Source: Psammoneis japonica (Eukaryota). From it: DNA of 64,000 nt. Position 1 is the stretch's first letter. Each line of letters opens with the position of its first letter. Of this stretch, positions 1-43,399 are shown piece after piece. Position numbers and translations under genes: made by a program. The stretch is from contig QPGO01000007.1 of NCBI GenBank assembly GCA_008632985.1, positions 806,001-870,000 of the forward strand, read 5' to 3'. The notes under the pieces were generated by a model, which saw only the letters and a program-made list of their open reading frames with translations, searched no databases and had not been told where the DNA came from.

Positions 1-3000
1 CCATCCTTGATTGGCTCTGGCACACTCAGCCAACTTGGCCGGGTTGGATTCCTTCAAGTCTGCAAGGTGTTCCCAAGTCAAGGTTCCATCCTTCCAACAA
101 ACACAAAGGTGCCATCCTTTGGTCATCTTGCACATGATTTGGTGTCCTCTGCTGTCCTGCAGGAAAGTGCCATCCTTCTGGACTGCATGCCCATCAGTCT
201 TGTGATCAACAATGGTGTCCAGAAGCAAGTGCTGGTTGCTTTTGTTGTCACATTGTGCCAACATGTTCTCGGCCATGACGTTGGCCACAAACTCCACTTT
301 CTGACCATCAGGAAATCAATCTCATGCACACAAGTGTCCAGAATGAAATTGGCACTGGCTCTGCCCATTGGTGTTCCATCTCAATCAAGCTTGCACTGTT
401 TGACTGTCCCAGTTTGTTGGGTGTCCCTGTGAGGCAACAATGCTTCTGAGTTTGCACAAACATCAAAAGCAGCATCAGGGATGTTGTCCTTGTTGGGTGC
501 ACTCACGGGAGCATCCTGGTCTTCATCATCCTTGCATGGATCAAAAGTGGGGGTCACAGCATCAGGGTCATCAATGTCTCCAACCATCATGCCCAGACCT
601 GGCTTGGCCTCCATCAGCTCATCAAATTTCTTGTGCAATGCCAAGTGCATCTCGGGTGCTGTTCCTCAGGGTTCAAGGGTCAACAGGATGAATGGTGGAC
701 AACTTGTCCATTGTCTTTTAGCATCTTGGCCATCACAGTGGGACCTGTGTCTCAACTTGGACCAAGGCAACACCCTGGGACTTCCTTGTCCTTGGGGAAT
801 GAGACGGCTGTGTCCCCAAACATGACCCAGTCATGCCAGCCAAACTTGCACATGTGCGAAATGTCAGCTGTCTGTCCAGACACTGTGGTTTGTGGAACCT
901 CCCCATCTAACTTGCAAATGTTGTGGACAGCATTGGATCAGATGAGAGCTTCAAGCTCAAGACAATCGTCCCAAAGGCATTTTGGGGCTTGAGTCTTCAC
1001 CAATTTGCATCCGACACCTTGCTTGAATTCATGAATGGTGCCTGCAGCAAAGTTGGACCATGGAGCACAGGGTTCAGTCTGCTTGACATGGCAGTCAGCC
1101 TCCCTGGCCTTCTTGCTGAACTGACCCAGTGTCTGCTCTTTTCCCCCATCCATGATCATTGTGTGGGGTGTGCCGTCTTGCATGAAGAGCAAGAACAGTG
1201 CTTCATGCGCCAATCCTTTAGATCTCAGAGGACAAGCCCATGCCCAACTGTTGGACATGCCAAAGACTTGTGCACAGGCATTGTCCCTTCTTGATTAAGT
1301 CAATGAGATTAAGGTGTTGGAGTGCATCTCCTTTGCAATGCACCTGTGTTGCAACTGTCAGTCATTGGTCCAAAATCTCTGTGACAGCATTGGATGAAGA
1401 GCCGTTTGTGCGCCACACTGCATCATGACTTTGACAGTGTTCTCAGCATCCTTGACACTGACAGACCAATTCTTGGCCAATTGTTCTGCATCAATGTGCA
1501 GTCCCCACTTCGTCATCTTGAGCAAAGAGAGACCAATGGAGGCTTGCAGCATGTGGTCATCGCATGTGTGTGAAATGTCTTGAAGCGGCTGATTCCCCAG
1601 GTGGTCTGAGGTCTCTTGAGCTGTGGTGCATGAGAGCTTTGTGCTCATGATGTGAATCTGAGGACATGCATTGTCCCCGGTCTCAGGCACATGACCAAGA
1701 GAGTCCGTCATGGAATCCTCTCTGGTTTGAAAGTTGGCAGTTTGTGGGTCCCATTCCGGGGACTCGCAAGAAAGTTCTGCTGCTGTGCCATCTTGCATGG
1801 CTGCTTCATGCTCCACAACAGCAGGTTTGGAAGTGGGAAAGCAACTCATGATGCCATTTAATTCCAACGGAATCAGGAGCTTGTCCCCATTTGCATCTGT
1901 CAATGTCGCCGCATGTGACTTGCTGTCAGGCTTTGTCAGTGGGAAATCGGTTGTGGGTTAACTCCCACGTCATTCAGCCATAACTGCACAGGACACAAAA
2001 GGTTGTGTTCAAGGTGCGGGGTGCTGTGTGCTGCCTGGTGAACAACCAGGATGCATTGGTGGCCCAAGGCAGGGTCTGCACATGCAACGGCTCTGCTTGT
2101 GGCATGCAGACTCTTGCTGGTGCCCTTTTTTGGGTCACAACCTGTGGCATCTGCTGGACAATCATGGTCAATTAAAGCATGCTTGCTCAGTGTGCTTGTG
2201 TGTGCATGACTGTCTGGCTCAGTCCAAGCTTCTGTGCACACGGCATCCCTCATGGTTGTTTGGGTCATGTGCAGGGTTTGAAGTGGACTGAGACACAGGG
2301 TTGGAGAGGATCATTCCTTCTCCTTCCCACTGGGTTTGAGGTTGCCATTCTTGTCATGCCGGTCATTGGCCTTGATGGCAGGCTGCTTCATGATTTCTTT
2401 GGACTTGCCAGTGGCATCATCCTGCTGGTCCTCAACATGAGCAGTCATTGCTGTGACCGCACTGGCAAGGGCCTTACGTGTCTTGGCTGCCACGAGTGTC
2501 ACGTGGGGACTTGAGCTTCTTTTGCACTTTTGGGGACATTCACTTGCACTCCTTGTTGGGGCAGCACTTGTCCTTGATGTCTTTCTCATGAATGACATCA
2601 TTGCATTGGCGCTCAGTGGCCTTCAAGGCAGCAATGCAAAGCTTCTTGTTTTTGTTGTCTGGCTTGGACTGCTTGATGAAGTCTTTGCATGAGACAACAC
2701 ACCCATCAAAGTTGCCGAGCAGCTTCATGCTGGCCACAATCTGTGCTTTGATGGAGTCAAGGGATGTGTCCTTGATGCTCTCCAGAAGGTGGTGCACCTT
2801 GGAGCATTCATCAATTCTGGCACAGCCGCACTCCTCTTGAGGCCCTCAATGATGGAATGCAGTTCAATGCAAACACGCACCAGGTGCTCAAAGTTCCAGT
2901 TTTGGCATTTGCCGTGGTGGGAAAGACCTGCCAAGCGCTTTTCAGCTGCATCAGCCATGTTGTCTGTGTCATTCAGACCCAAGAAGTGGTTGTGCAAGTT

Positions 3001-3730
3001 CAGACAGGCCGTCCTGCTGTCCTGATTGTGCTGAGCCTTCTTCACATGTGCCCAACAAGAATGTTCCCATGTGATTCCAGCAACAATCTCCCAAACCTTG
3101 ACATTGTCAGCAGCAGATGTTTCTGCAGGTTGCAGGCCAGCCCCAGTGGTGAATTGGGGGGCACAGGCAATCATCTTGGCACAGGCATTGGTGTGGTTGT
3201 CAGCGTCATTGTCTGCCTCCAGTGCAACCACCTGATTTTCTCAGACCACACAGGCTGGGGGGATGTTGGTCTCTCCGTGACTGGCACAAAGATGCTTGTG
3301 GATGGCTTCCATCACATTTGGCCAGTCCTTCTCAATGACAGCAGGCAGGGTGTCAGGGTTCTCATGGGTTGTCGTTTCCACTGTGCAAAGGTGGTGGCAC
3401 CCCCTGACATGGTTGAGGGTGACATCAGCAGCGTGCAACATGTGTGAAATGCACTCATGGTGATGAGCAGCAAAAGCTGCGAGCTTGAGATTCGTCTCAG
3501 CCCGCAGCAACATGGTGGTCCCAGGTTGGGTTGTGGATTCGCTCCACCACCCACCGCACCTCCTGGGCAATGCATGACCTTGCATGAGGTCTTGACCTCA
3601 TGGTTGTTAAGATGATGCAGTTCCTTGACAGTGTTGATTCCCTGGTCAGCAAAACAAGGGCCGCTGACACTTGGTTCATGAAGCCAAGTCTGCGGTGTGA
3701 AAAGTGAGTGAGTTGCACGAAGTTCATGTT
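1..3730 (-). mobile_element. Degenerate Ty1/Copia (CoDi-like) LTR retrotransposon, gag-protease-integrase region, continuing beyond the window start
   Basis: Frameshifted minus-strand fragments. Gag: 'DQGINTVKEL..VKTSCKVMHCPGG', 'RAETNLKLAAF'. Protease: 'EPDSHAHT' (ELDSHADT-like). Integrase core: 'MIMDGGKEQTLGQF..KQTEPCAPWSNFA..LWDDCLELEA'. Copia domain order PR-IN. Almost no TpA or CpG left. Confidence 0.85.
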
Positions 3731-5419
3731 GCTTTTTCATTGTCATGTGTGTTCCATTAGTTTGTCTGACCAAAGTGTCTAGAGATTGGATTCCAATGTT
3801 GCAACTGCATGTTGCCATGTGTGAACATTGTGCAGACTGGAGTGCCAACTCTTGTTGGACATGCGTGGTCACACACTGAGGCATGCTTTGTTCCCAATGG
3901 TTGGCTTGACCTGTGGCAAGTGTTTGACACAATGTGCAGATCACATCATGTGGACACATGCACAATGGACATGTGTGTTGCTCACTCAACAATTTCAAAT
4001 TGCTCACGCATCTGCCTCTGAGACAACTTTGGCATGGAAATGGCATCCCAAATCCATCAATTTGCACTCTGTGTTTGTGCATGCATGCCACAAAGCACAT
4101 CAGAACAGATGATGCTGCAGTGCTCAATGAGCATTGAGACTCGCACCAATTCTGGGAGCACAACACTTGTCAAGCACAAATGCTTCTTGCATTCGTAGAT
4201 GTTTGCTCATCATCCCTGACACATGTGGAACATTTTGTCATCATTGCATTGCATCACAATTACCCTGTGGTCGCATGAACTGGGGATGAGACTAAAAGAA
4301 AGCTTGCAACATTGTGCTGCTTTTCTAGAAGTGAGATCTAAACTTGAGGAACCGTTCTGTGCCCAATCGCCAATGACAAAGCACACCAAACTAACTTGAA
4401 TTGATCACATGGTAAATTCTTCAGCGGCAGTGCGGCAGCATCCCGCACGAGCATCTGGCCTTGGGGCCACAAGTCCACACAAGTGTCAGTGATGGGCCAT
4501 GATGCCATTCAAGACATGGCCAAACATTTGAGGCCACCACAACCCAGGGCTGCTGGTGGTGGTGGTGGTGCTTCTTGTTGTTGTTGCTGCTGCTGTTCCA
4601 AAACATGTTGCATCAATCATCCCCACCCACTTGACTGGTCATTTGGTGCGTGTGTCAGAGGGTGTCTTGCCACCATGTGGTGGCTGCCACACTGCAGCAC
4701 AAGTGTCCTCCTCATTGTCACAACTGTTGCTGTTGACTGAACAATGCTCCTTTGTCAACACCAAATCAAAGCTGACTTTGAACTCAATGATCAACCCCCA
4801 TGTGACATTTTTGTCCATGCACCTGGCTCCAAATGCCTGGATGTAATCAACCTGCGTGGTGGCCAGACCCAATCCTTGACTGCACACTCCATTCTTCTGC
4901 TCTGTTCTTGTCTTCCAATTGAAACACAATCCAAACCTCAATCAGCTCCATGGCATTTTTGCTTGTTTGTGCCCCCCCACATTGGACAAGCAAAGGAGAG
5001 AGGACAATGACACCTTCATCAACTTCCAGGTCATCATCACCATCATTTTCCTGGCCAGCCTGCCCTTGCTGCTGCCTGTCTGTGTTGAGGGTGCACCGGG
5101 CATTGAACACTTGACATGGGCACACATTGCACGTTGGAGCATGGCAATGGCCACGGTGGCCAGAGACTGACAACTGCAGGCACTGCTGCCTCCACCCAGC
5201 TTGGCCACAGTGAATGACATGTCCCCAAGAATGCACCACAGCTGTTGATCAGCAGCGGGAAATTGATTTTGGCACATTCCTGCCACAACTCAGCTGGAAA
5301 TGTCTGCTCCTTGCAAGCCCTGCATGCCAAGGATTGTGGCCATGAAATGGCCCAAATCGAGGGTGTGAGTTCAAAGCAGCAGCTCTGTGGCTGCTTGGCA
5401 AAAAGAAGAAAGTTTTAGT

Positions 5420-5770
5420 CAAGCTGTCTCATCAGCACCCATGGAAATGAAGCCAAGGAGTTTGGCAAAGAAGGGCACAGGAGACAATGCAGGGCACCAA
5501 GGAAGAGCAAGGGATGGTTGCCAAAAGCCAACAAGTTCTTCGAGGAGCTGGTCATGGAGATCAAATGTGACATCACAAGTGAATGACTTGGTTGATGGGA
5601 AGATTTGTGCAGAACAATTTCAGCCAGACATGGAAAGCAAGTGGGGGAAGGATTTGATGATTTGGGTGATGAGGGCAGGGAGAATGATTTGGGTGATGAG
5701 GACAGGGAGACCACATGGCGGCCGAGCTGTGCCAAGGTCTGCGAGCTGGAGCTGATGGTGGTTTGGCAGA
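5420..5770 (+). repeat. Relic 3' end of an unidentified multicopy ORF family, copy 1 (homologous to ~42640-42980)
   Basis: 'ggttgccaaaagccaacaagttcttcgaggagctggtcatggagatcaa' matches 'ggttgccaaaggccaacaagttctttgctgacatggtcatggagatcaa' at ~42760. Both copies end in CAK(I/V)(Y/C)ELEL. Confidence 0.7.
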
Positions 5771-6878
5771 CAAAAGCCCATGAGTGGAATTTTTTTGTTG
5801 TTCAATGCATGGATTCTTCCATTGTAGAAGCTGCACTTTAGATGGCTGCTGTCAAATTGAACATTTTGTGTGGGTGCAAACTTCTTGAATTTCACCGCGC
5901 TGATTGGTTGTTGCACGTCTGTCCCACAGACATTCATTGGAGGTGCGGGACATTTTTTTCTGTTTTCAAATCACACCCATCAATCACACCAAACAAGTGT
6001 GATTCACATCAAATCTGATTGATTTAGTCACAAACAAATTGACGTGCTTGCACTCACACATTTGGGGCAGACCAAGGTCTGGTCATCTGTGGACACAAGG
6101 ATTCATTGATTCAGGCCCCTGGTGGTGCACAGCTGTGAGTGGAGCAGTCCAGCTCCACACAGCAGTGCCATGCCAGAGTAACTGCACAAAAAAGGCAGTC
6201 ATGCAAGAAGTGCTCAAGTTTGGCCACTGAATGACTTGTGGGGGATGAACAGCAGCACACTTTGGGGCCCCAAAACACTCTTCTGGAGTGGCTGTGGGGG
6301 GTCACACCAATTTGCAATGGCAGGCTGAGGAAAAGGCAAACACATGCAGGGCAAGGGGAAAAAGGTAGCCAACTGACAAGGCCAGGGCATGGCAAAGTGA
6401 TGCCAAGAATGCAGAGCAGGCTTTGAAAAGAGTTTGTCTGGCAGTGCAGCATGAGAATGCGAGATGTGTGTGACAGCATGACAAAATGCCTGTCGTTGGT
6501 CAGGACCCAATGGAGAATGGGCTTCATTGCCCAAAAAGATGATGGAAAAGGATAAATACAGTCGACGTTCCCGTGCCACGAGGCAGGAATCATTTGAGAC
6601 TCCGACATTTCCGCCCATAAACTTGCCAAGATCAACGCCACCCAATCACAAAAATTTCACACTCACATGGAAGCCGCAGAAGCTGCATTTGGTGTGCATG
6701 GCACCAAGCCCAAATTGACTCTCTTTGACCACTTTCATGGTGATGACAAACAGCGATTTGATCGTGAAGTACTGCGTCTCCCATTTTGCAAATATAAAAT
6801 GTTCTAAAGTACAGACATGATGTAAATCGAGTGTCCTGCGGCTCAGGGCCTTGTTCCCCTTTCATTGCTCTACCCCCG

Positions 6879-8558: not shown

Positions 8559-10699
8559 GATGATACCCTCCTGTCCGACACCTAAATCCAAAGAGCGAGG
8601 ATATTATGGGGCACACAACAATAAGCAGGGCCGCAAGTCACGTTCCTCTTTTATTGTCGCTGCGTTATCCGCACTGCCGGTAAGGTTTGACTTCGGGCAG
8701 AACAAACAATAAAAACAAGCGCCAGAAGCCAGTTTCCTAGCGTTTTACTGGTAAAATATTTATGTAAAAATTCGTACAATTACAAAAAAGAGATGAGGTC
8801 GGATCGAAAAAAAATGCGACAGAGACACACAAAAACGCGACACAACACGACAAGCGACAATGGCGACCATCATGTGGGGATGATTTCAACACCCGCACTA
8901 ATGTCAGGCATACACACCTAACAATGTAAACATGACAGATTTAACTGAAACAATGTTTGGTGCACTGCTGTCTGTCTGGGTGCTCCAATCGATCACTCGA
9001 GATGACGCCAATGTCATCAACATCTCGCGTTCATGTTGTTGCTGAGTGCAGTTCATGCAGAAAATTGCAGAAAAAGCCAGTGACAAAGATGCCCTGAATT
9101 TAACCACAACCTGCATCCAGGATCAATGAGGGTGCACACATGTGCTCATCACTCACTGCACGACACATCTGGTGCAGCATTTCATCACACGAAAATCAAC
9201 CAACGGCATCACGGGCGGCCGCACACCATTGGCCAGCATCGAGTGCCACACAAAAAGCATGGGGATGATGGATGTCAACTCTCCTGTCACGTTTGTCTGT
9301 CTGTTGCCCGTTTGTCTTGTAGAATCTGTGACAATGTTCCCACACTTTGTGGTCTGCTGGTGTCCACATGCTTCATCATCTGACACAAGAGCTGTTTGCT
9401 CCTCTGATGAAAAGGTGCTGTCAAAGGGAGTGCAGCACCAGATGCAAAAGCTCAGGAACTTGCCAGCTGATGCTGACAAACCCATGCATGAACCCATTGT
9501 TCTGCACTTTTCTGCTGGCATGTGTGAAAAATGCCTGTTGTTCCCAGGCACCAGCGTGCAGACTGCATCATCACAAGGCAAAACCAGCCAGAGATGAGAC
9601 TGAAGGGCACACGCACAGCTCAAACAAATGCATTGTTTGGTGCACTCATCACAAAAGCCTTGGGAAGCACCTTCCTGTGCAGGGTTCAGGGCAGCACTGC
9701 CACAAAAGTGCCATCTGTGGTGTTTTGTGTGCAAGCGCCCATGAAGACTTCCATGCAACTGCTGTTTGACAATTTGCACAGTGACTGGGCAGCACACAAT
9801 CTGCAAATCTGCAATCCAAAAACAAGCTCAAATCACTTCTTCACCAAGTCTTCACATTGGAGCATCATCAGGAGCACCAGGAGAAGTGGCAAGCAAGAAA
9901 TCAAAACTTGTGGGAGGACAAAGTCAACGACAATCATGGAAAAAAGGAAATTTCAGCAGTGCTGCACATGGACAGGCATCACTGTTGTCATGTTAAATTG
10001 GAGCAACTTGGACATTGTGGCAGTGTCATGGACAGTGCTGGAAAAGGTGCCACACCCAAGGATCTGATGGCAAGAAGATGTGGCTCATTTTGCACTCCAT
10101 CAAGGGATGTGCCAGCAGCCAGCTTGCCAACCTGCAGTCAAGAGCTGGGTGATCGCAGAATGCATCAGATTGTCTTTTGTACAAAGGAAGCTGTGCAAAT
10201 GCTCTCAGCAATTTTTGTGGCTGGGCACCTTGTCAACAAGACATGTGGGGTGCAGCAAACAAATGGCATGTTTCTCTGCCACGCAACATTTTTTTGGAAT
10301 GATTGGTTGACCACAGGGTCAAGATGGAGCCAAGGCCAAGGGTGCAAGAACACAAAGCAGATTGACAAATGACCTCAATCCAAGAGCACTTCACATGGAT
10401 TTTTGGTGACACAGAGCACAGCTGAGCTGTCTTCACTTTGCGCCTGGATCTGGCAGTGTGACATGATCAATTGGGCACTGTGCCAAGCAAATGTTTTCAG
10501 ACAGTTCATGCCCAAAACAGCAGCTGGCCCTTCTGCAATTCAGAGAGCTGGGTTCAAAATCATGCCAGCTCTCCAGTGCCAGGGAGAAAAAATGTTTCTT
10601 GAGAACTCTCTGCCAGCTGTGGAGGACAGAGTCACAACTGGATGATGGGGTCTTGTTCTTGGCAAACACTTTTCAACACAGAGCTGAAGAGAGTGCAAA

Positions 10700-13600
10700 T
10701 TTTCCATGGAGTCAGGGGATCATTTGGCTGAGAAGGGCAACAAATCGTGGGACAGTTGTCGGGTGATCACTCGGCTGAGAACAGGAACAGATCATGGGAC
10801 AATGACTCACATGTTCCACAACAAAACAACTTGGGTGCTGTTGGTGCATGTCACTCAACTCCACGTCAACAAACTGGTGTTCCTGGATCCATTGGGTGGT
10901 GGCAGGATTCTGCATCTCGTCAAGGGATGGATGGTTCAGCAAAGATTGAAACAACTCAGGATCATCCACAAAAAAGAACAAAAATGAGAAGGTTCTTCAC
11001 ATTGACAAGCAAAATGGCACACTGGCACATGCTTGTCAGTTTCTTCATCCTCTTCATGAGGTGACACAGCAATGTTGATTGCCTTGAAGTCTGTCAACTT
11101 GCCCTCATCAGGAGCACACTTCTCTTCCATGGAAGGATCCATGTGAGGCAATCAAGCAAAACAATCAGCCAACGCATTGTCCTTGTCTGTCAATGTGCTC
11201 AAATGCAGGTGCAAAGTCTTCTAAGAAGAGTTGCCACCTGAGCACACATGCATTGAGAATTGAGGGTGTGAAAGGTGAGATTCTCATGATCAGTGAAAAC
11301 AGTGCAGTTGCCTCCAAGGACTTCATCACGATGCAACCTTCGGATGGACGATTGCGTTCAATGGCAGACCCTTGGTGGATTGTGCTGGTCCGGTGTTTGG
11401 TCATTCGCCATCATCCCATTGGGCTGAGGCTTGCGGTTTTCTCTCCCTGACTCGGCCCATCCATTGTCTGATGGAGTTTTGCAAGATGTCAATGCATGAA
11501 GGTGTTGACAACTGGTGTGACAACAAGGCCTTGGTCCATGTCCTTTCCAGATTGTCTTCCAGCCGCCCATCCACCAACCCGTCACCACAAGAGCATTCCG
11601 ACAGAGACTTTTGTCTGCGACAACATGATGCCAATGTTCTTTCATCCAACTGGGATGTCATCAATGAAACACACTTGATGCTTGAAGCCATTCCTCAGGC
11701 TCCAAATCCTTCTTCCCCTGGGCAGGCACTGTCCACAGCTTGGGTGAAAGGACACCAGGACAGACAAGCTCCTGTGGAGACCCTCCCACTGAATGCACAA
11801 GTCAACGCACATGCAGATGGGTTGGCAGGAAGATGCCAAGGACAATGTGACGCAGACACAACGGCCGGAGGTGCTTCCCTTTCCCCATTGTCAATCACAC
11901 CTTTGCCTCGCCAATGGAACGGTCACTGCAGGAATGAATTCCATGGTCAGATGTGCCGCAATGGCTCCTGCTCTCTTGGCATGTGTTCAGGAAAGAAATG
12001 ATTGGGATGAATCTGTCACAGAAAAGATCGACTGGAAGGTCCATGCAACATTGGTGCGCAGGCACTCCAAGAAACATGTGTCCATGGTTAAACTCATCCA
12101 CGACCTCCTTCCAACAAACAAGATCACTCATTGGTGCAATCCTGTGCGGCCACATCATTGCCTCACATGCAAACACCCTGTGGAGGATTGTGACCACATT
12201 TTAAGATGCCCCGCCAACAAGGCCTGGCGTCACAAATTCCTGCAGGGCTCACAAAAACACTGCAACAAAATTGACACAATGCCACCTCTGCGCGATCCAC
12301 TGCTGACTTCCCTTGAGACATGGCTGAGAGGTGAGATGCAGCATGAATCAGACATTGCCCCAATGCTGCGAACGCTGTGGAAAGCCCAGTCAGAAACAGG
12401 ATGGCGACAAGTTTTTAACGGATGGCACTCCACCCTTTGGAATGTGTTTCAGGAGATGCATCTTTGTGAGACGGGTCTGTTGGAGAAACACAGGAAAGAG
12501 AATCGACCTCCTCCGGTGTGGGGAGTGCACATGGGAACCTGCACTTGGAAGTCCTGGTGGGAACTGTGGGAAGAACACAATCAGAAGGTTCATGGTCATG
12601 ACGCGGATTCAAGGAAATCATCTTTACAACATCAGGCAGAAGCCAAGCTCACAGCTGTTTACAACAAAAGACAGGATCATTTGGCCAAAGACAGAGAGGT
12701 GCTGCTGGATTCAGCAGATGACCACATGACCCAATCTACACTGCGGATTGTGAATTGGGTTGCTGTGGTTAAACCACGTCCAAAAGAAAGCCCAAAGAAG
12801 GCAGTGCGCGAGGCGCTTCGTGGCACTTGCTCCATTGCAAGCTATTTTGGATGGGTGTCATCTCATGGTGACGCCCCTTCCAGCTGATCCCAAGAAGCTT
12901 CTGCCGCACTTAACGGTGTGCTGGAAGTGTGGGTTGGCCGGCACCAGCTTAGCTGGCAAAGGAGTGACAGCACTTTAAACATGGATCTGTTTTTTTTTTG
13001 CCTCCAAGGAGCATTGTGCAAAACTCCATGAAGCACATCACCACCACAAGTGTTTTTTTTTTTATGGCAGAGTGATTCTGCTGCACTGAGCTGAGCTTCT
13101 GGGACCAGCGTGCACCTGGTTTTCCTTCTTGCATGATCACTGTGCCATCTGGCAGTCTGAGGAATCAGCGCAAATGTGGAGAGGCTTGTCATGATCAGGA
13201 CAGGTCCACAGAGCATCATCCAGCATGACAGTCTTCACATCCTTGAGTGCTTGTTGACATTGTGGTGTCCACTCCAATTTGCTCTTGCCTCAGAGCTTTG
13301 TAAGAGGAGAAAGTGCATGAGAATGGCGTGGCCACATGTTGCAACAATGGGTTGCTGTGCCAATGAAAGAGTGCAGTTGTGTTGTGTTCTGTGGATGCTG
13401 CATTCACAGCACCATGTCTGCTTTTTTCTTCTGCAGTTGGACTCCTGTTGGTGTGAGCCAATGGCCCAGAAAATTGGTCTCTTGGACACACCACTCGCAT
13501 TTGAGTGGATTGACTTTGAGACAATTCTCCTCCAGCTTGGATGACAGCCCATCAAGATGACACATGTGAGCATCAAACATCATCAAATTGGGCAATGTCA

Positions 13601-15300
13601 TTGACACAAGCCTCAACATTGAGACCATTTGCCACTTTCTCATTGATGGCTTGAGCAATGTCTGGCAAAGTTTTCAATCCCATCACAAGACAACAGTGGC
13701 AAATTTTCCAAAAAACAGAGTGACAACAGTGCATGGGTCCTTGGACTCTTCGTCAAGCTCAACATGACAATGACACAGCAAGATCCAACTTGGTCAAACA
13801 CTTGCATCCCGATCATTGATGAGTCACATCTTGAATGATTGGCAGAGGATAAATCTTGCATTGAGGACCTTGTCAAGCTCTCAAAAGTTGGGTGCCCATT
13901 GCATGTGTCCATCCTTTTTGGGTGCAACAAAGGCTCCAGCTGCCCACTGGGTTGAACCAACTGGCTCTGGCATGCCAATGTCACAAAGGTGTTGCAATTC
14001 CTTTTAGAGTGCTTCTTCATTGTTCTTTGACACTTCACAGGCTTTAGAATGGAAGGGAGTGGTGCTGGGATTAACTTCCAAGTGAACTGTTTCACATGGA
14101 TGTTTGCCAGTGGCACCATCAAAAAGAGTTTCATGCTTTTCAAGTGCAGCTTGCAGCTTGTTGTGCTGTCAGGGTGTCAAATGGGTTTGAACTTGAGCCA
14201 CCTTCTCAGTGGAGACCTTTTCACATTTGGCGTCCGGCACGCAGCTCTTGCCCAACAGCTCTTCTTCAAATTCATTGCCGCCATCCTCGTGGTCGTCCAG
14301 CACATCTCACCAACTCTGCACCACCATGCTCCAATGATTGGACTGCTTCATTGGGATCAACGCATCCAACCACTTGGTGACTCCAAATCAGAAATCAAGC
14401 ACCATTCCAGCCTTGGAAAGAAAATCTTGACCCAACATCATGTTGCACTTGTGCGCGTGGAATCAAACACTTGTGTGGCAATGCCATCCACCGTGTGTTG
14501 GGATGATTTGCACCATCCAGCTGTGGTCTCAAAACTCATCCATCCTTTGTCGTTCATTGTTGGATTTGCTCCCTCAGGCAAAACTCGAGAATGCACAAGG
14601 ATGTCAGCACCTCCAGAATCTAGAAGCACACACAACACTCGCTTGCTCTCTTGGTGGCTTTGAATTGCATGGGATGCCATCAACATTGCAGGCACCATGT
14701 TCAATGGTTTGGGAGTTGCAGTTTTTGAGGTTGGTGCAGCACACTGCAAAGCGCCACCCAACTCTTTGTCATTCACAGTGTGGGGTTCCATCAGGTCTCC
14801 CACACTCTCATCAACATCAAAACACAAACAATTTTCACAATCACACGAAACACAAAAAGATTGAGCAACATGCTCTGACTCAGGCACTTCCATCCCTTGT
14901 CAATTGTGTCAACTTCATTGGCCTTGTGAGTGACGACCACCTTGATCGCACCCATTTCCACCTCGTGTCTCACGAGGCCCTCCTTGGTCAAAATGGCAGG
15001 ACTCCATCATGTGCCAGCCACCACCAGGAGGAGCTGCTCCAGTGGGATTTTCACAGCCTTGGGATTCACCATTGGCTTGGGTGCCATTTTGATTTTGACA
15101 ATGACAAGCTCCACTTCCTTGGGGATTCTGGGGACCAGCACAGTTCCCGCAACCGCGGCCTCCACAGTTGCCTCTTGGCGAAATTTCCCAAACAGAGCGA
15201 TGATGGTGTGCCACACAGTTGAGTCAGGAGTTGAAACATCTTGAAGGCTGCTTCAGCTGAGTGGTGCTCGTGACTGTTTTCATCGTGGTAACACCAATGA
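10700..15300 (-). mobile_element. Degenerate Ty3/Gypsy element (gag end, protease, RT, RNase H, start of integrase), split by a LINE insertion
   Basis: Protease 'VLLDSGG' (~14620). RT 'LKVNPLKCEWCVQETNFLGHWLTP'. RNase H 'IMQEGKP..WSQKLSSVQQNHS..EFCTMLLGG' resumes left of the insertion as 'LGGNCTVFTDHENLTF..VLRWQLFLEDF'. Confidence 0.85.
11321..12997 (+). mobile_element. 5'-truncated non-LTR retrotransposon (RNase H and C-terminal Cys/His domain) with a 13-bp target-site duplication
   Basis: RNase H motif 'WVKGHQD..LNAQVNAHADGLA'. CCHC-like 'CLTCKHPVEDCDHILRC'. Trp-rich tail. Flanked by ttgcctccaagga at 11308-11320 and 12998-13010. Confidence 0.85.
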
Positions 15301-20140: not shown

Positions 20141-21560
20141 CTATGCGTATTCTACACTCGACTGACCAGAGACGGAGCGTCTCGTAGCAATTGATAGAGC
20201 ACGGTTGGGTTGTCTGAGCGTTTGCCCAATTTGGACAGTAGCTTGCGTCACGGCACAGGGAGGCAAATGTTGATCCATGACGGCTGCTGGATGAGCTTGC
20301 AAGAGTGTCTCGAGTCCTTCGTTCCACTTGCGCTTGGCACAAACAAAGGACGCCAGTGGCAACAGACCAGCGTCGTTGGTTGTCTTTGGTCCTGCTGGAA
20401 AAGCTTGAATGAGTTTCTCGAGTAACGACGTAAAAGCCTCGCGTTCACGTGGTTTGGGTGTCATGGTGGCTGCAAGGTGGAGAGGAAGGTTACCCTTTTC
20501 GTCCTTGCACAGAGCTTGTTCTGGAAAAGCCCGGAGAAACGCACGTACCAACTCGACAGGGCATTTCTCAAGGAGAATGGACTTGCGCAATAACACAGAG
20601 TCGGAATTGCAGCGGCGGCCCATGGCGAGCATCTTGGCAACATTCAGGTTCAGGTAACACTCGGATGCCACAGGCCCTCGTCGCTTGCAATCAGCCGAGC
20701 GGTGTCNTGTTGCTCTTGTCTTTCGGCAGCTACAAGCGTCTCAAAAATTTTCAGAGAGGCAAACCAAAAGACAGCGCTGGAAAGGGGTGTTTGGCCGTTT
20801 TTATCCCGGGATTCCAAGAGACAGCTGCGGGTGTCACATTCAGCAAGAGCTTCAGTCGCTCATTTGCATCATCGTGTCTGGAAGTCAAGTGGAGTGGTGT
20901 ACACCCATTGCTGTCTTGTGCTTGTACTGTGAACAGGCTTGTTTCCAGCAGAATCTTCAAAACCGCCAATGTGAATGACAAATCCTTTTGTGGGAAAACG
21001 CAACTTCGACTGCTCGATGAAGCGGAGTCGAAAGTCTTCTGAGCCACTTGCTTTGTGGCATTCCATCCAAGCTCTTGTCAAAAGTTGCAGCATGTCAGCT
21101 AGATCTGCACTGAGCACATCATCTGGCTGTTTGTCATCCTCTCCTTCACGTTCCAAAAAGTGCCGAAAAAAGCCATGCAATCCATGGGTGTCCGGCGCCC
21201 GCCACGGTCCACCACCATGTGGATTCAAGTGAATGTCCAGCAAATCAGAAATCACCTCAAGATTCTGTTTGAACAAAATGGCATGGTGAAGAGGCATCAG
21301 ACCCCACCCGTTGGTCACATGCTGTCATTGCTGCACTAAGCCGGCACTGCGTCTGATTCTAAAAAGGCACAGGATGTTGTTGCCCTGCAAAAGTGAAAAC
21401 AAGGAGTTGTCTGGCTTGTCAGCAGGGGTTTTAAACCCATCACTCTGCTCTCAGGCAACCCAAAGTGTTGCCAGCTGGGGGTTTGGACATGCTGGCACAA
21501 CTCTGTGGACCGGGTGGAAGCTTGGCACACAACTGTGAATGGGACATCACAGCCCAGTGG
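20141..21560 (-). pseudogene. Ankyrin-like repeat gene (diatom 'LPLH' family), frameshifted, 5' part hypermutated
   Basis: Motifs 'DEKGNLPLHLAA', 'DSNGCTPLHL', 'NGWGLMPLHHA', 'DAGLLPL' spread over several frames. One N at 20707. TpA nearly absent beyond ~21040. Confidence 0.7.
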
Positions 21561-21619
21561 CTTCTGATTTGCAAGACAGTTCAAGACTTCAAGTCCAGTT
21601 TCAAGTCATTTTAAGCAGC

Positions 21620-24600
21620 AACAAAACAATGGCTTTGAGCACATTTTAGGCACTGCCTGTTCCCAATCAAGTCACAGACAGTCCACTTTTCTTCACCTTC
21701 AGCATTGATGGCACTGACTCCTGCCAGGATCTCTTCACTTTTACTCCGACGCAACTCGATGCCCTGGTTTGCAATGATGGCACCAATCAAATGCCCTTGC
21801 CACGCAGCTGCAAAGCACAGATGGCTGCGTTGATTGGCCCGTGCATGGCAAAAGTGCACAGAGATGCCAATGTCAGCAACAACCCTGCCTTGTTTGTGCA
21901 TGAGGGGTTTGCTGACTGTCGTCTCAGCCCTGAGTGTGCAGCGTCCCTTTCCACAGCGGGCACAGTGCCATCTGCTCCTGCACCTGGCTCATTGCCCCCA
22001 AAACCATGTGACCCCGTGCGTGACTTTAAATGAGGCAGCAAACATGACCCACTTGCCTTTGCAACTCTCAAGCCCAACAAACATTGGCACACATGGCACA
22101 CCTCTGTTGTCGCACAGGCCGCTCCCAGAACATCGACCGCATTCTTGATCCAACATGCAAGCCCTCTGCAGCTGAGGACAAGGCCCTGCTCACCAAACAA
22201 CAGAAGCACATGTTCGCCACATTTGAGTGCATCTTGCAAAGTGACAAAGGCAAGGCACTTGTTTGTGAACATGTTGGCTCCTCTGATGCTCAAGCAGTGT
22301 GTTGTGAACTGTCCAAGTGCACCCTTGCACATGCTTGCGCATCTCTGGAGTCCTCAACCCTTCTCATGCACCTCACCACCGCTCGCCTTGGCCTTGGTGA
22401 TGGCACCTGGAAAGGCTCTGCTCATGCCTTCATGCTTCACTGGCAGGACTGACTTTGTAAGTGTGAAGCTCTCATCCCAAATGCGGACAGCTTCTTGCTG
22501 GCCAGAAACACATCATGCTTGAGAATGCCATTCACCCTGTTGAAAAACTCCGTTCAGCAAAGAACCAAGCCAATCAGTTCTGCACACAGAATGGCATGGG
22601 CGTTTCACTCAAACAGTGCTGTGGGCTCCTCCTCTCTGTGGCAGCACAGTGCAACAGCACGTTCACCCCCAAGACAGCCTCATGCACTCCGTGCTGTGCC
22701 ATCTGCAAACATGACCTGGCCCCCAACAACCCTGAAGATGATGTGTTGTTCAACATCGACAGTGATGTTGACATCATCCAAGCCTGCGCTGCACAGACTC
22801 GTGGCACCTCCCTCACCAGGGAACAATGGTGCTGCATCTTGCTGGATCACCAACACATCTAGGACGCCTTGCCTCAGTCTGCCAAGGCCATCATCCTTGG
22901 CTTGCACACTGTCTGTGCCGGCAACTGCCAGGTGTCAACTTGTCTGCCAATGCTCACAATCTTGCATCAGCCCCAAAACCACCCGATGCCACAGCAGATG
23001 CAGCCAATGCCAACCCCATCCTGGCACACCTCACCAGGTGCAAGCCTTTGCCACCTGGTGACTTGCAATGCCTCCTTGCACCTGAAAGCCCAAAAGGCCA
23101 CCATGGGCCCACTCTGGTGAGAACCCCCCAGATCTACATCCTCCCATGCTGCTGCTGCCAACATTGAGATCAATGGCCACACTTGTCATCATGCCAACAG
23201 TCACAATGTTGTCTGCTCCACCTTGACACACAACTCGACTTGCAAGGGTGCTCTCGTGGATCACAGTGCAAATGGTGGCATCACCATGCACTCGTGTGGC
23301 CAACTTGCATGGCACAAACACTGCATCAATGATCGGTCGATCAAGGTTCCCAATGGTCTGCAGTGCATCACCACCATCAATGGATGTGTCATCCCTGCCG
23401 ACATCAAAGGTGGCCTTCTGCACATTGCCACATGCCCGCACACCAATGCTGAATGTGCCCATGATCCGTCCACTTCCAACCTGCATCTTGACCCTCATCC
23501 TGACAAGAAATCTGCCAAACCCGTCATCAAACCCCACACAACTTCAAGGATTCACCAGATCCACCAGATGGGGAGGCAATCAGGATGCTCAAAATGCCAG
23601 TCTTTGACCCCAAGGTTGAGGACTGACAACGTCACAGAGCCCACATCTTCAAGGCCTTTGACTCTGAGGTTGAGGACAGACAATGTTGCAGAGCCCGCAT
23701 CTTCAAGGCCATTGAAGGTTGAAGACCATGACTGGAAAATTGGCAACAACCTGGAACTGGTCAAATTTGTTTGCTCTGTTGACAATGATGAATGTGAAAA
23801 AATCCTTGCCTGCAATGACATCATGCACCACATCAAGCAAGAAGACAAGGACTCCACTCTTTGGAAGTTCCGACATCATTTTGCACAAAGGACCATCCAG
23901 CCCAAGCCACAATGTCATGCTTGAATGGGAGAATGGGGAGATTGCATTGGAACCCCTTGCCATCATTGCCAAGGACAATCCCATCACCTGTGTCATCTGC
24001 ACAGGCAAACACAGCCTGCTTGAAACCAAAAGCTGGAAACGCTTCCAAACTGTGGCTCTGCACCAGAAGAAGCCATTCCACATGACCAACCAAGCCAAGC
24101 TGTGCTCATTTTGCACTGCACCACAACACAAGCACAGGCATGAAGTGCCACAAGATTGCAGGCACACCTTGGCCCTTGACAAGTGCAATGGCAACCACAA
24201 GTTGGGGATGCAACAGACCTTGAGATGACTCAGCTGGGGTGAGCACAAGGTTTTCTATGACTGTGGACACTGCAAGGACTCCACACAAGAAGATCAGGGT
24301 GCATCCAGTCTGCAACGTCAAACATGACGGGTGGCACAAGGCACAACTTGTTGCTGATGGATGCCTCACAGATGCACTCATTGATGGTCTGCACATCACT
24401 TTGCATTGCCTTGGCATCCCCATTCGTGAAACATGTCACATGTTTGGGGACAACAAGTTGGTTGTGGACAGTGCTGCCATCCCACACTCCAAGTTACACA
24501 AGCGACACACTGCCCTCTTGTTCCACCATGTGTGCGAGGTGATTGCCTCCAGTTTTCCAAGGTTCCTGCAACCCAGCTGACATTCTCAGCAAGCACTGGG

Positions 24601-24940
24601 GCTGCTCCCAGGTCTGGAACATCCTTTGTCCTCTAATGTTTTGGAACTTTGATCCCAAGGCTTTCAACCAATCTGACCTTGAATCCATTGCTGTGGACTC
24701 CTCAAGCAAACTGGGGAGTGACAGGATTTGAATGAGATTTGAGTTTGTCGCACACAATTGTGTGTGCTCTCAGTTGCGTGCACAGTGCATGATGTGGTTT
24801 GGCTCAATGACAGCAGTGCTGACATCACAACACCAGTCTTTTGGCTCCTGTGATGGTCTCTGCATGAAGACTCATCCGCCATTTAGACAGCAGCAAGGAG
24901 TTGTTGTTTTCTTCCACCCAGTTGTCTTCAATTTCTGTCA
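21620..24940 (+). mobile_element. Internally deleted, degenerate Ty1/Copia (CoDi-like) element
   Basis: Gag 'KQQKHMFATFECILQSDKGKALV..DAQAV..LTTARLG..WKGSAHAFMLHWQD'. Protease 'ALVDHSANGG'. 'VMLEWENGEIALEPL'. RT start 'VKHDGWHKAQLVADG' joined directly to RNase H 'MFGDNKLVV..LHKRHTALLFHHV..NPADILSKHWG'. Confidence 0.85.
24719..24940 (+). repeat. Probable 3' LTR of the Copia element
   Basis: Follows the polypurine tract GGGGAG. Starts TGACAGGATT and ends ATTTCTGTCA (imperfect terminal inverted repeat). No matching 5' LTR found. Confidence 0.55.
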
Positions 24941-25249
24941 GGTCTGCAGCAGCTGACATTGTGAGCAACAAACAACTCTAGATCAACAACACTTGACTCA
25001 ACAACAAACAGCTGGACAGCACAGTGTTTTCATTTGTTGATTGCTGTGATCTTGTTGCTGGTGCAAGGGAAAATGCCTTGAGCATGACAAGTGCTGTTTT
25101 TGCGAGGCGAGGTGAAGCAGATTGAGAAAGACAGAAGTCTGCAGTGCGTCACACACGTGTGATCACAGCAAAATCTCCACAAAGTCTGTCCATGCCTCAC
25201 CTGGTCAGGAGGAATGCATGAAGCTTCCCCAGTTGTCTCCATTCAACAT

Positions 25250-26690
25250 GAGACTCTAAATGTGTCTTGAAGAGCTCTGTGCGACCTTTCCACCGACACA
25301 TGCTTGGGTCATGGGGTCTGTGGCTTCATCCTAAAAAAAGTCCACTGAATTTTTCACTGGAGTCCAATGCAATTTAAGGCACGGTGCAAATTGAGGCACA
25401 CTTTGCATTGGCCCCTCACAAGCTGCAAGCTCCATTAAAGTTTTGTGAGTTGCTGCAACATGTTCGGTGCACTTTTGCCCTTCCTTGAACTTCCATTGAG
25501 AACAGTGCTTTTCTTGCCTCTTGAATGTGGCACAAATGCTGATGAACGGACACCAGTTCTCTTTGCAGCATGGTGTTTATGCCAAAAATGAACAAGTTCA
25601 TAACTTGCATCATCTGTTGTGCATCATGTGTTTCCAAGTTGCGTGCACGCAACAAACTGCAGCAGCACAACACAGTGCGTGCGGCTGATGTCCCACTTTA
25701 CGGCGTGATGTCTCAATGGTGCTTGCACCAATTTCCCCATTTCTTTTTTCAACATTGGGAGCAATTGCACAATGCATCCTGCCAGGTTGGTCCCATTGTG
25801 TGTCATTGAGAGTTGTGGATTTCTGTTTTGTCCAAAAATCTTCTCAGAGCGGGCAAGTCACGCAGGCGCACTGCAACAAATGAAGGACAAAAACATTTTT
25901 TGACAACACCAAACACTTTTAACCAAACCAGCCAATGCTTGCATTGAATGAGCTTCTCCATTGCTGTCATGATGCCATTCCTTCTCAACCAAGCCACTCG
26001 TTCACTGCGTCCGTCATGGTTGACAATTTGCAGCTGAGGCTCCTTGGACCAATTCGTCCTTGGTTTCTTCACTGCAATGGACCCATCACTCTTGCCACCA
26101 TCCATTGATGCCTTGCGCTTTTTGTCTTTGTCATTCTCAGCTGCAGCAGTCTTCTTGGCAGACCGCACGAAGAAAGTGCCTCGCCGATGATGTTCTGGCA
26201 GCACTGCTGGCAGCATCCTTTGCAAACTTCGCTTTCTTCTTCTTTGGATGGCCATGACATTTGTTTTTTGAGAAGAAGTCAGTCACAAAAGAAAGCTTTG
26301 CCTTCTTTGCATCTTCCTGCGTTTTGGGGGGCTTCAAAAGGTGGCGCCATGGTCGATCTTTGAAAGAGAAATGAGGCGCCAAATCTTGGTGGTATCCTAC
26401 GTAGAAGTCACGGTTGTTTCTACGTGAGAAAAAAGAATTGCCTTCATGTGCGACGTCAATACTATCCTCAGTCATGACGAAATATTTTTCGAAGGACATA
26501 AAATGACAAGGACGTGGAATTTCGGAGTCGTATAAATTTTTTCCTGGCCAGCGCAATCAGATCTTTCATTTGCGCGCGTCAAAAGGGCGGGAAAATGGAA
26601 CATTGAAGTTTTTCAGGTCTGTTTCAAAGCTGACTGCTGACAAAAATTTCAATTTTTTTTGGACGCGGGTTCACGCAAATCCCTGCATTA
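25250..26690 (-). mobile_element. Possible DNA-transposon relic
   Basis: Frameshifted basic ORF pieces ('KKRKASMDGG..KKPRTNWSKEP') grading from intact to TpA-depleted. No transposase catalytic motif or TIR pair confirmed. Confidence 0.3.
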
Positions 26691-27968: not shown

Positions 27969-28289
27969 TGGGTGGGATTGTCATTGAGTATCAATTATAC
28001 CTATCAGAGCTTACGATAACGTTCGCATTAGTTCATCTAAGTTTTTAGAGGCATGTCTCGACCTAACAGAGAAAGTAGCGTTGCGCCAAGGGGACCCTAT
28101 CCACTGGGTTGCATGTGAGTCGACTGCCGGAGGCAAACACCACACACGTTTCGGGGTCGACGTGTACATCTGCCGTGCTGCGCTACCTGGACGATAGCTG
28201 CTTCCTCAAATGATTCATGTCAAGCTGCAGCTGGCTGGCCAGTGTCGAAGTGATGATCTTTACAAGCTGCTAGAATGCAAGGATGAACA

Positions 28290-28907
28290 GTTGTCTTGGG
28301 ATGGCCTTGGATGACTCCATTGGGTCCCAGAGGATGCAACAATGACAATGGTTGGGAAGCAAAGGTCTTGTCTTGTGTCAATGCAGCAGCTTGTCTCTCT
28401 GATGTTGCTGGCCTTGGCCCCCAGCCAGCCAACCAGCAGAGACAAGGGCGCCATCTGTGCGACAGTGCAAGTGCTCTGTTGTCTTGAGGTGGCGTTGGAT
28501 GACTCCATTGGGTCCCAGAGATGCAACAACAACAATGGTTGGGAAGCAAAGGCCTTGTCTTGTGTTGACACAACCCTTTGTCCCTCTGACATGACTGGGT
28601 TTGGCCCAGCCACCCCACCTGCAGTGACAAGACCCATCTGTGTGACAGTGCAAGTGCTCAGTTGTCTTGGGATGGCCTTGGACAACTCCATTGGGTCCCA
28701 GAGGACACAACAACGACAACAACAACGGCTGGGAAGCAAAAGCCTTGTCTTGTGTTGATGCAGCCCTTTGTCTCTCTGACATGACTGGGTTTGGCCCAGC
28801 CACCCCACCTGCTGAGACAAGAAAACCATCAGTGTGACAGTGCAAGTGCTCAGTTGCCTTGGGATGGCCTTGGATGACTCCATTGGGTTGAAGAGGTCAC
28901 AACAATG
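28290..28907. repeat. Degenerate ~185-bp tandem repeat (3+ units; 4th unit interrupted by the Gypsy element, resuming at ~34186)
   Basis: 'gttgtcttgggatggccttggatgactccattggg' recurs at ~28290, 28478, 28661 and 28853. 'caatggttgggaagcaaaggccttgtcttgtgt' reappears at ~34190. Confidence 0.8.
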
Positions 28908-29332
28908 TGCAGCATGCCTCGCTGCTGGACAACACGGCGAGACCGTGCACAAGCCTCTTGTGCATGGCAACGTGGTGTTGTCAACACGCACCTGGGAAGC
29001 ACGACCACAGGAGGGCGTGGCTCCAGGTCTTAGGCAATTCCAGAAGGATGCCAAGAGAGCATCCGTGTGAAGCACACCAGCCCGTCCTCTGGCCCACGAT
29101 GGCAGCGTGATTCCACACGATGACATCACTCGTGCATGGCGCGTGATGGCTTAATTCGCACGATCCACAATGCGAACGCATGATCGATTTAATGCGATCC
29201 AAATGCGAACGAATGGGGATTTGGCAAGATTCCCCATTCGCACGATCCCATTTTCTCTGCTCTGAACTGGCTCACAATTTTCACAACGACAAAGTCGCAA
29301 CACATCTTCTTTTTCAGTGCCCAGCACACACA
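28908..29332 (+). repeat. 5' LTR of Gypsy-1
   Basis: Aligns end to end with 33748-34177. Confidence 0.9.
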
Positions 29333-33706: not shown

Positions 33707-33747
33707 GACATCCTGTCACTTGACGGGGCCCTGATCATGGGGGAGTG

Positions 33748-34177
33748 TGCAGTGTGCCTCGCTGCTGGACAACACGGCGAGACCGTGCACAAGCCTCTTG
33801 CACATGGCAATGCAGTGTTGTTGACACGCACCTGGGAAGCACGACCACAGGAGGGCGTGGCTCTGGGTCTTAGGCAATTCCAGAAGGATGCCAAGAGAGC
33901 ATCCGTGTGAAGCACACTAGCCCGTCGTCTGGCCCACGATGGCAGTGGCATGAGATTCCACACGATGACATCACTCGTGCATGGCGCATGATGGCTTGAT
34001 TCGCACGATCCACAATGCGAACGCACGATCGATTTAACACGATCCAAATGCGAACGAACAGGGATTTGGCAAGATTCCCCATTCGCACGATCCCATTTTC
34101 TCTGCTCTAAACTAGCTCACAATTTTCACAACAACAAAGTCGCAACACATCTTCTTTTTCAGCACCCAGTGCATGCA
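33748..34177 (+). repeat. 3' LTR of Gypsy-1
   Basis: Follows the PPT and aligns with the 5' LTR. Confidence 0.9.
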
Positions 34178-37890: not shown

Positions 37891-37892
37891 CC

Positions 37893-42980: not shown

Positions 42981-43399
42981 TTGAGATTAACTTGGCAGCA
43001 ATGACTCGCATTCACACTTGTTGACAATCGATTGCAGCAGAGACACACAATGAATGGACAAGACAATGGAAAACATTGTTTGAACGTGCAAGTCAACCAA
43101 TTGACTGTGACAGCAAAGATTGAAAATGAGCCCCAATGCTGAATTTGGCAATCACCCAGTCAGCAATGATGAGCCAAGTGAATTCCCACAAAGGAACTCA
43201 TTTGGATCTGCAAACTGATTGAGTTTCACCTCACTCATTGAAATCAATGACTGTTTGTTGATGTCCCTGGACATTTGTTGGCATGCATGGACATTCATTC
43301 ATTTTTGGTCACTCCCATTTGTGATGAACAGGTGTGATTTGTGTTGAGTGGCAATGGTTCATCACAAATGAATTTGTGTGCCGACACTCACACTCACAC

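Follow-up and report, generated by a model that had tools for sequence, protein, structure and literature searches.

Probable rewriting of TpA to TpG/CpA at the word TAY by a regional, strand-symmetric process in silent DNA of a diatom-like genome

The DNA considered here is a window of 64,000 nucleotides assigned to Psammoneis japonica (assembly GCA_008632985.1, contig QPGO01000007.1, positions 806,001 to 870,000 of the forward strand), in which long blocks of DNA are strongly depleted of the dinucleotide TpA. We propose that a regionally targeted, strand-symmetric process rewrites TpA to TpG/CpA in silent DNA and that its target is the A of 5'-TAY (Y, pyrimidine; R, purine; N, any base), a reading to which we give a probability of about 0.85. 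The composition of the window is a mosaic, with eight depleted blocks in which the observed/expected ratio (o/e) is 0.00-0.20 for TpA, 0.03-0.45 for CpG and 1.5-2.6 for TpG/CpA, and with gene-bearing DNA between them in which TpA o/e is 0.4-0.7 and CpG is near 1. The borders of the blocks are only 250-500 bp wide and lie beside unaffected genes, so that the loss is confined to regions with sharp limits, as in the process described from Bigelowiella natans, to which we return at the end. For the analysis the depleted DNA was taken as 24.8 kb in blocks at 1-6500, 9000-12500, 12750-15000, 21000-25900, 28250-28900, 34250-37600, 42750-45750 and 47750-48400, and 24.4 kb of normal-composition DNA from the same window provided the baseline.

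The target is revealed by the bases that flank the few TpA that remain. Positions 1-6050 (TpA o/e 0.04-0.08, CpG 0.20-0.21 and CpA/TpG 1.7-2.2 over 1-6000) retain 25 TpA, made up of 18 YTAR (TTAA 6, TTAG 6, CTAA 4, CTAG 2) and seven half-sites (TTAC 2, GTAG 2, GTAA 2, ATAA 1); GTAC, GTAT, ATAC and ATAT are absent from the full listing of this segment, which leaves no RTAY at all. The five TpA of 21040-21620 are distributed as CTAG 1, CTAA 2 and TTAA 2. A first-pass annotation of the window had put the first segment at about 25 TpA, some 18 of them YTAR and none RTAY, and had seen only CTAG, CTAA and TTAA in the second; both statements are exact. The other blocks repeat the pattern, since all eight together hold 82 TpA (55 YTAR, 26 mixed and 1 RTAY), which by subtraction leaves 37, 19 and 1 outside 1-6050. 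Normal DNA of the window holds 956, divided into 161 YTAR, 509 mixed and 286 RTAY, and the context split differs sharply from it both for 1-6050 (chi2 51, p = 8e-12) and for all eight blocks (chi2 121, p = 6e-27). The outcome that the first-pass annotation had set against its own motif, equal depletion of all NTAN contexts after normalising, was examined on proxy baselines. With normal DNA as the baseline, uniform loss of TpA across contexts is rejected (chi2 118, p = 2e-27). Because this DNA is mostly coding, and hence poor in TAA and TAG, a second baseline was taken from 79 related retroelement loci from metagenomes (369 kb, with 22,927 TpA in proportions of about 1:2:1); the ordering of contexts was unchanged and uniform loss was rejected again (chi2 90, p = 2.5e-19).

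When TpA is expressed, for each flank, as a share of the four pyrimidine-purine steps and compared to normal DNA, its survival falls from.52 for TTAA through.29 for CTAA/TTAG,.16 for CTAG,.094 for GTAA/TTAC,.047 for ATAA/TTAT,.038 for CTAC/GTAG and.027 for ATAG/CTAT to.008 for GTAC, and it is 0 for both ATAC/GTAT and ATAT. The YTAR sites, earlier described as spared, are spared relative to the other contexts, but they also decay, with 16-52% remaining. All ten tetramer classes are fitted by a four-parameter model in which survival is the product of two per-strand factors, each depending on nothing but the base 3' of the A on the strand concerned (deviance 2.5, 6 degrees of freedom, p =.87). 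These factors are.69 for A,.45 for G,.11 for C and.05 for T, and mixed sites lie at the geometric mean of the two extremes. This multiplicative fit favours a three-base word recognised in single strands over a palindromic site in double-stranded DNA. A smaller effect is seen at the second base 3' of the A (+2), where survival of the half-sites TAAA and TAGA is 2-5 times that of TAR with C, G or T in this position (chi2 30, p = 1e-6). On the 5' side a T precedes the target A, in that depletion among NpA dinucleotides is limited to TpA; ApA (o/e 1.07-1.20 in 1-6000), CpA and GpA are not depleted.

The products point in the same direction as the survivors. The purine/pyrimidine skeleton is kept in the blocks, and at mixed sites the products are those predicted, with YTGY exceeding YCAY and RCAR exceeding RTGR. 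Specifically, the YYRY contexts, four in number, gain 653 TG (1002 to 1655) and 402 CA (884 to 1286), and RYRR gives the mirror image. RTGY and RCAY, which represent the symmetric contexts, occur in nearly equal numbers in 24 of 26 bins (p >.05), and there is no strand bias overall across the 26 bins, the two with nominal p <.05 including one in a tandem repeat; with no bias of TG versus CA in such contexts, both strands are affected alike.

The mechanism we propose would have as its targets old, unannotated single-copy blocks and inserted long terminal repeat (LTR) retrotransposons. It would act on one strand at a time. The main influence on its rate would come from the base 3' of the A (T >= C >> G > A) and a smaller one from the base at +2, where A would protect, so that the preferred word would be 5'-T-A-Y-(not A), or equivalently the T of 5'-R-T-A on the other strand. 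RTAY would carry the preferred word on both strands and vanish first, mixed sites would carry it once and be converted in the direction described above, and YTAR, with the word on neither strand, would linger. Together with the decay of methylated CpG, such a process would drive the affected DNA towards TG/CA.

Of this scheme the data show the target word, action per strand, the equal effect on both strands, action on DNA already integrated, the regional limits and the independence from loss of CpG. We infer an enzyme as the agent because a T before the A is absolutely required, because the effect of the next two bases is graded, and because the regional mutation rates measured in B. natans are thousand-fold, as given in the main text of Mettrop et al. 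(2026; bioRxiv 10.64898/2026.01.13.699255). The most likely candidate would be a single-strand DNA adenine deaminase of the TadA/ADAT2 kind, an assignment that we make tentatively and at somewhat below even odds. The alternative that survives best, which we nonetheless consider unlikely, places the chemistry on the partner base: the T of 5'-R-T-A would be enzymatically oxidised or hypermodified (of the 5-hydroxymethyl- or 5-formyl-uracil type) and would mispair with G, giving a change of T to C. In its favour, the footprint is exactly symmetric and reads equally well as R-T-A, and modified thymines are concentrated at TpA in dinoflagellates and kinetoplastids. Against this, telomeric repeats carry base J in YTA words, which belong to the class that is spared here, and our literature searches found no such base reported in diatoms. 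Moreover, the context spans -1 to +2 around the A, which resembles the loop recognition of deaminases.

A different account of the same survivors is that TpA was lost uniformly and that the TpA seen today are new, having arisen from CA/TG by context-biased back-mutation. As CA/TG stand at twice their expected level in the blocks, back-mutation must occur, and some survivors in the old blocks are probably secondary. As an explanation of the motif we find it very unlikely, because destruction can be measured directly with polarised tests. For this purpose the pol open reading frame (ORF) of the Ty3/gypsy element of the window (Table 1) was aligned with 60 homologues to infer ancestral states; the frame is open and its 3' two-thirds lie within affected DNA. 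In the unaffected part (residues 1-210), the eight conserved Tyr columns read Y in seven cases and W in one, while the 20 in the affected part (residues 211-861) read C 11, H 5, Y 3 and A 1. Thus, TAY has become TGY or CAY at 16 of 20 conserved Tyr columns, which are the products of TpA to TpG/CpA, and the string NYYR, for example, is now NCCR. Under the TAY/RTA motif all Tyr codons should be open to attack at the A, but at the T only those that stand behind a purine. The fates of Tyr columns conserved at >= 50%, sorted by the base 5' of the codon, match this prediction, with 8 Cys, 0 His and 3 kept behind a pyrimidine and 5 Cys, 5 His and 0 kept behind a purine (Fisher p =.036).

The same distinction is found at junctions. 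At T-AY junctions (conserved Ile, Met or Thr) 13 sites have changed to Val or Ala, none is kept and two carry another residue, whereas at T-AR junctions (conserved Lys or Asn) two have changed, seven are kept and five carry another residue; T-AY is thus changed at 13/13 and T-AR at 2/9 of the sites that are either kept or changed (p = 2e-4), and in the unaffected part of pol 0/11 such sites have changed. Other replacements that fit TA to TG/CA are I-to-V (10), T-to-A (7), I-to-T (4) and V-to-A (3), and three R-to-H fit CG to CA. Taken with tetramer survival and the mixed-site products, the Tyr fates and the junctions support the earlier proposal that the preferred target is the A of 5'-TAY, or equally the T of RTA.

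That the change takes place in integrated DNA follows from repeats within the window, where blastn self-comparison found four LTR or repeat pairs. The two LTRs of an element are identical at integration. In the Ty3/gypsy element, the LTRs of which now share 92.5% identity, there are eight sites with CA in one copy and TG in the other, and because 24 of 28 CpG are intact in both copies these eight must descend from TpA that was lost independently in each LTR. All non-YTAR TpA of this pair are gone, and those left, two sites in both copies and four in one, are only YTAR, which again speaks against back-mutation. The three less diverged pairs show 10 single differences of TA versus TG/CA. Eight of these are changes that the motif favours, with A/G followed by a pyrimidine or T/C preceded by a purine; the two others are one T/C behind T and one in CTAG. 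The comparison of younger with older pairs indicates that fast sites go first and YTAR sites last. In all, the LTR pairs contain 11 CA/TG double differences, and a tandem repeat at 28288-28905 contains eight more between its copies. The process therefore acts on integrated DNA, one strand at a time, as the LTR pairs show. Within the Ty3/gypsy element lies an unmutated core, with borders (29780-29878 and 31706-31764) sharp to 60-100 bp and with both LTRs and the remainder saturated; this core may be the result of gene conversion from a fresh copy, of chimeric assembly of a high-copy family, or of a true domain limit of the process.

The blocks have also lost CpG, with a gain of TpG/CpA. CpG survival is.12-.29 in all ten contexts with weak context dependence, and is lowest at TCG/CGA (.12-.15, versus.22-.29 elsewhere). 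The TCG/CGA minimum, together with the preference of amphioxus ADAT2 for TCG (PMC10354150), raised the possibility of a single dual-activity deaminase for both TpA and CpG, which we rejected, as TpC outside CpG is not depleted and the two losses are separable. The loss of TpA is the faster of the two, because the 92.5% LTR pair has lost every TpA outside YTAR with most of its CpG still in place, and it is separable, because eight of the 79 related metagenome loci have CpG o/e < 0.35 (0.12-0.34) with TpA at 0.62-0.92. The hosts of these eight gypsy relatives (our loci L009, L043, L037, L045, L069, L070, L067 and L039) appear to have CpG decay without the TpA process. None of the 79 has TpA o/e < 0.58, a set in which the search patterns and tblastn ranking favour intact copies, so that this is no evidence of absence elsewhere. 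The second, slower process is most likely deamination of 5-methylcytosine, and CpG decay would be expected given that diatom transposons are methylated at CpG through DNMT5a, as passages of PMC9998398 describe.

Decay of this kind could be thought to cause the loss of TpA as well, if T:G mismatches left by 5-methylcytosine deamination triggered error-prone patch repair by a Pol eta-like polymerase, which mutates WA (W, A or T). This would link the CpG and TpA losses of the same blocks. However, ApA/TpT is not depleted (o/e 0.95-1.2), TpA loss precedes CpG loss in the gypsy LTR pair, and the eight loci just mentioned show the converse state of low CpG with ordinary TpA. We therefore hold this explanation to be most improbable, and the parallel to Pol eta drawn in the first-pass annotation fails on the same ground of intact ApA.

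It might also be argued that there is no mutator, the blocks being foreign or coding DNA that avoids TpA through composition or codon usage. A high-GC (~60%) LTR element at the right of the window (57154-63434) lends this some substance, since its TpA o/e is 0.05-0.3 with normal CpG and long open frames. However, its 31 TpA comprise 15 RTAR, 5 RTAY, 7 YTAR and 4 YTAY, and in minus-strand ORFs 12 of the 31 form Tyr codons in frame (11 TAC, 1 TAT), which is the word that is missing from the blocks. Its TpA poverty is therefore a matter of the codon usage of a live or recently live gene, not of the mutator. Its LTRs show the first differences of the TAY type. Low TpA alone is thus not diagnostic of the process; the flanking context is. 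As regards the blocks, they contain 140 stop-to-stop ORFs of >= 90 amino acids (aa) in ~27 kb, in all six frames, and none of the 140 reaches the Pfam cut-off, leaving the large blocks without recognisable origin; three weak matches (E.0065-.0086) fall below the curated cut-offs and were treated as chance. These long ORFs owe their existence to the near absence of TAA and TAG alone, and gene finders would over-call in such DNA, with long false ORFs in six frames. Finally, the LTR pairs and the differences between the window and contigs of a public sequencing run covering the region (X1) represent change in place. An origin without any mutator is, in our view, hardly tenable.

We give just as little weight to an artefact of base-calling or assembly, in which modified bases at TpA and CpG would be misread as TG/CA. 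The sequencing technology is not on record, and the abrupt unmutated core in a high-copy element could be an assembly chimera. On the other hand, X1 contigs at a depth of ~60 reproduce the blocks with few other letters (17 in 4565 bases, 3 in 844, 3 in 1055 and 2 in 574), misreading per strand should give CG and TA calls too, and the pol frame is open with coherent Tyr-to-Cys and Tyr-to-His changes. X1 is the one public run found to cover the region; no RNA run was found, which carries no information on expression. Over 28001-48000 the X1 contigs show 1252 variant places, of which 1046 are transitions; among the 40 listed, 27 lie in blocks and comprise 21 transitions, including three CA/TG doubles and one CTAC/CTGC. 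The depth over the blocks equals that over the region of the gene for cytosolic ribosomal protein uS3, so that the blocks, which the first-pass annotation had treated as repeats, are single-copy, with one 85%-alike paralogous contig over 35336-35828 as the sole exception. Neither blastn self-comparison nor a seed search on the purine/pyrimidine skeleton found a second copy of any block in the window. The LTR elements at 28.7-34.0 kb and 37.3-42.7 kb are of very high copy (summed depth 3,900-28,900).

The least credible explanation is ADAR-type editing of retroelement RNA before reverse transcription. ADAR favours a 3' G, which is disfavoured here. The 5' U that it prefers, according to the main text of bioRxiv 10.64898/2026.01.13.699255, would fit, but the LTRs of one insertion differ at TA-derived sites, which places the change after integration, both strands are equally affected (RTGY and RCAY, above), and single-copy DNA other than retroelements is affected.

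A number of points weigh against the process we propose, or against the precision with which it can be described. The survival values use proxy baselines in place of the ancestral composition of the blocks, and of these coding DNA under-represents TAR; the ordering is the same with both. The bounds on selectivity are loose, at ~4-5 fold for blocks in which decay continues and ~60 fold for blocks that have reached equilibrium. The ancestral states in pol come from relatives only 53-62% identical, and the LTR and allele differences are not polarised. X1 may be the sample behind the assembly, and thus excludes an assembly slip but is not independent, and its variant detail rests on 40 of 1252 variants. 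As for the agent, deamination of A and modification of T are indistinguishable from sequence alone, and the natural substrates of ADAT2/3, the eukaryotic A34 tRNAs, mostly have a purine at +1. In addition, ADAT2 of amphioxus prefers GAA for A on DNA, according to passages of PMC10354150.

The features of the window are collected in Table 1. Besides the pol of the Ty3/gypsy element, this eukaryotic window encodes uS3, a class II fructose-bisphosphate aldolase and an RRM protein. The closest named proteins to uS3 (84-91% identity) are from Fragilaria, Mayamaea, Synedra, Attheya, Odontella, Entomoneis and Proboscia, which we take to be all diatoms, and on these matches the host of the window appears most similar to diatoms. 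PDB comparisons of uS3 and the aldolase said of the lineage only that it is not fungal-like. Three long ORFs of 570, 820 and 375 aa (6879-8591, minus strand; 16448-18910, minus strand; 26841-27968, plus strand) occupy islands of normal composition between the blocks and have no Pfam match; they are presumably lineage-specific genes. Pfam scans found no viral genes in the window, and an Rfam search gave no match.

Table 1. Coordinates and character of the features of the window
Feature	Coordinates	Strand	Evidence and remarks
Hypermutated block	1..6500		TpA o/e 0.00-0.20, CpG 0.07-0.37, TpG/CpA 1.5-2.4; contains 1-6050
Hypermutated block	9000..15000		Composition; patch 12500-12750 slightly less depleted
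Hypermutated block	21000..25900		Composition; contains 21040-21620
Hypermutated block of 190-bp tandem repeat	28250..28900		3.3 copies; copies differ by CA/TG doubles
Ty3/gypsy LTR retrotransposon, high-copy	28906..34169	+	LTRs 28906-29324 and 33746-34169, 92.5% identical; LTRs and 3' part hypermutated
Unmutated core of gypsy element	29850..31720	+	TpA o/e ~1, RTAY present, abrupt borders
pol ORF (reverse transcriptase, RNase H, integrase)	31121..33706	+	From ~31760 on, conserved Tyr to Cys/His, Ile to Val, Thr to Ala
Hypermutated single-copy block	34250..37600		X1 contigs agree save for mostly transitions, including CA/TG doubles
Younger high-copy LTR element	37893..42606		LTRs 37893-38259 and 42240-42606, 97.3% identical; N gap 39919-40433; only first TpA losses
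Hypermutated single-copy block	42750..45750		Composition, X1 contig depth
Small hypermutated intergenic block	47750..48400		Zero TpA remaining
High-GC LTR element	57154..63434	-	LTRs 57154-57333 and 63255-63434; TpA-poor contrast case

Some further observations concern individual features. The first block contains a run of trinucleotide repeats (GGT, GTT and GCT units) at 4555-4600. The depleted DNA at 36000-38000 has a strong strand asymmetry, with GC skew of -0.31 to -0.47, AT skew of about -0.2 and TpG well above CpA. The copies of the 190-bp tandem repeat (28288-28905, 3.3 copies, 84% matches) lie directly upstream of the 5' LTR of the gypsy element, and X1 contigs show several alternative joins inside them. 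The high-GC element contains a 1311-aa minus-strand ORF with no Pfam match and with reverse-transcriptase-like motifs, and its left end has a further pair of short repeats (56926-57132 and 57323-57529) nested at it.

Among known systems, repeat-induced point mutation (RIP) of fungi is alike in producing dense transitions with a dinucleotide context in silenced DNA, to the ruin of transposons. However, RIP is opposite in sign, as it converts CpA to TpA and enriches TpA, while here TpA is converted to CpA/TpG and the blocks have TpA o/e of 0.03-0.1 and CpA/TpG of 1.7-2.3. RIP also needs duplication, whereas the blocks here are at present single-copy, apart from the paralogous contig noted above. 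APOBEC3 resembles the proposed agent in that it belongs to the host, deaminates within a short 5' context and inactivates retroelements, but it changes C to U during reverse transcription and on one strand, whereas the change here is A:T to G:C, after integration and on both strands. The decay of methylated CpG in diatoms matches the CpG o/e of 0.1-0.3 and the TpG/CpA gain of the same blocks; it accounts for the CpG half only, is slower and is separable from the loss of TpA. With TadA, ADAT2-ADAT3 and the base editors derived from TadA, the process shares a target A preceded by T/U. Bacterial TadA reads U-A-C-G, the same span of -1 to +2 as the footprint described here, which is a resemblance. 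ADAT2 of amphioxus and of trypanosomes can act on DNA, although the preferences of the amphioxus enzyme there, GAA for A and TCG for C, are unlike TAY (passages of PMC10354150).

The nearest relative of the process is that of B. natans, a chlorarachniophyte, and the comparison is with the main text of the preprint of Mettrop et al. (2026; bioRxiv 10.64898/2026.01.13.699255). In mutation-accumulation lines, two integrated viral regions received 231 of the 302 new substitutions, every A:T-to-G:C change in these regions was at TpA, and the genome contains 124 clusters that are TpA-poor and CpA+TpG-rich; an ADAT2-like deaminase was proposed. In the integrated giant-virus and virophage DNA of B. 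natans, as here, only TpA is affected and becomes TpG or CpA according to the strand, the effect is confined to silent or foreign regions, and the clusters are mostly unannotated. The differences are that the host here is diatom-like, that the targets seen are LTR retrotransposons and unannotated single-copy blocks, with no viral genes found, that depletion is far deeper (TpA o/e 0.03-0.1, compared to 0.45), and that CpG is lost as well. The main text of the preprint, when searched by terms, mentions neither CpG nor flanking context. Our literature searches found no report of TpA-directed mutation in diatoms, and a term search of a diatom transposon paper (PMC2806351) and a diatom mutation-rate paper (PMC6604790) found no mention of it in the text covered. 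Hypermutation of TpA to TpG/CpA has thus been described once before, in the B. natans preprint, and what is new here, relative to its main text, is the motif in the flanking bases, a host similar to diatoms, and the finding that the process is separable from CpG decay.

The same chemistry as in a chlorarachniophyte is now seen in a diatom-like genome, diatoms being a major group of ocean phytoplankton. In affected genes Tyr codons are the first casualties, and the quantitative target word (T >= C >> G > A 3' of the A, with A at +2 protecting) provides a fingerprint against which any candidate enzyme may be tested in vitro. A wider and more doubtful possibility is that one DNA adenine deaminase, reading single-stranded T-A-Y-(not A), is an old genome-defence mutator common to diatoms and chlorarachniophytes, and perhaps to more of the SAR group (stramenopiles, alveolates and Rhizaria). 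Its effect, added to that of methyl-CpG decay, would be a 'reverse RIP' in which invading or silenced DNA becomes rich in TG/CA. In that case no earlier example would be known of a natural eukaryotic enzyme that edits adenine in chromosomal DNA for defence, and the motif measured here would be the biochemical fingerprint of an enzyme shared with B. natans.

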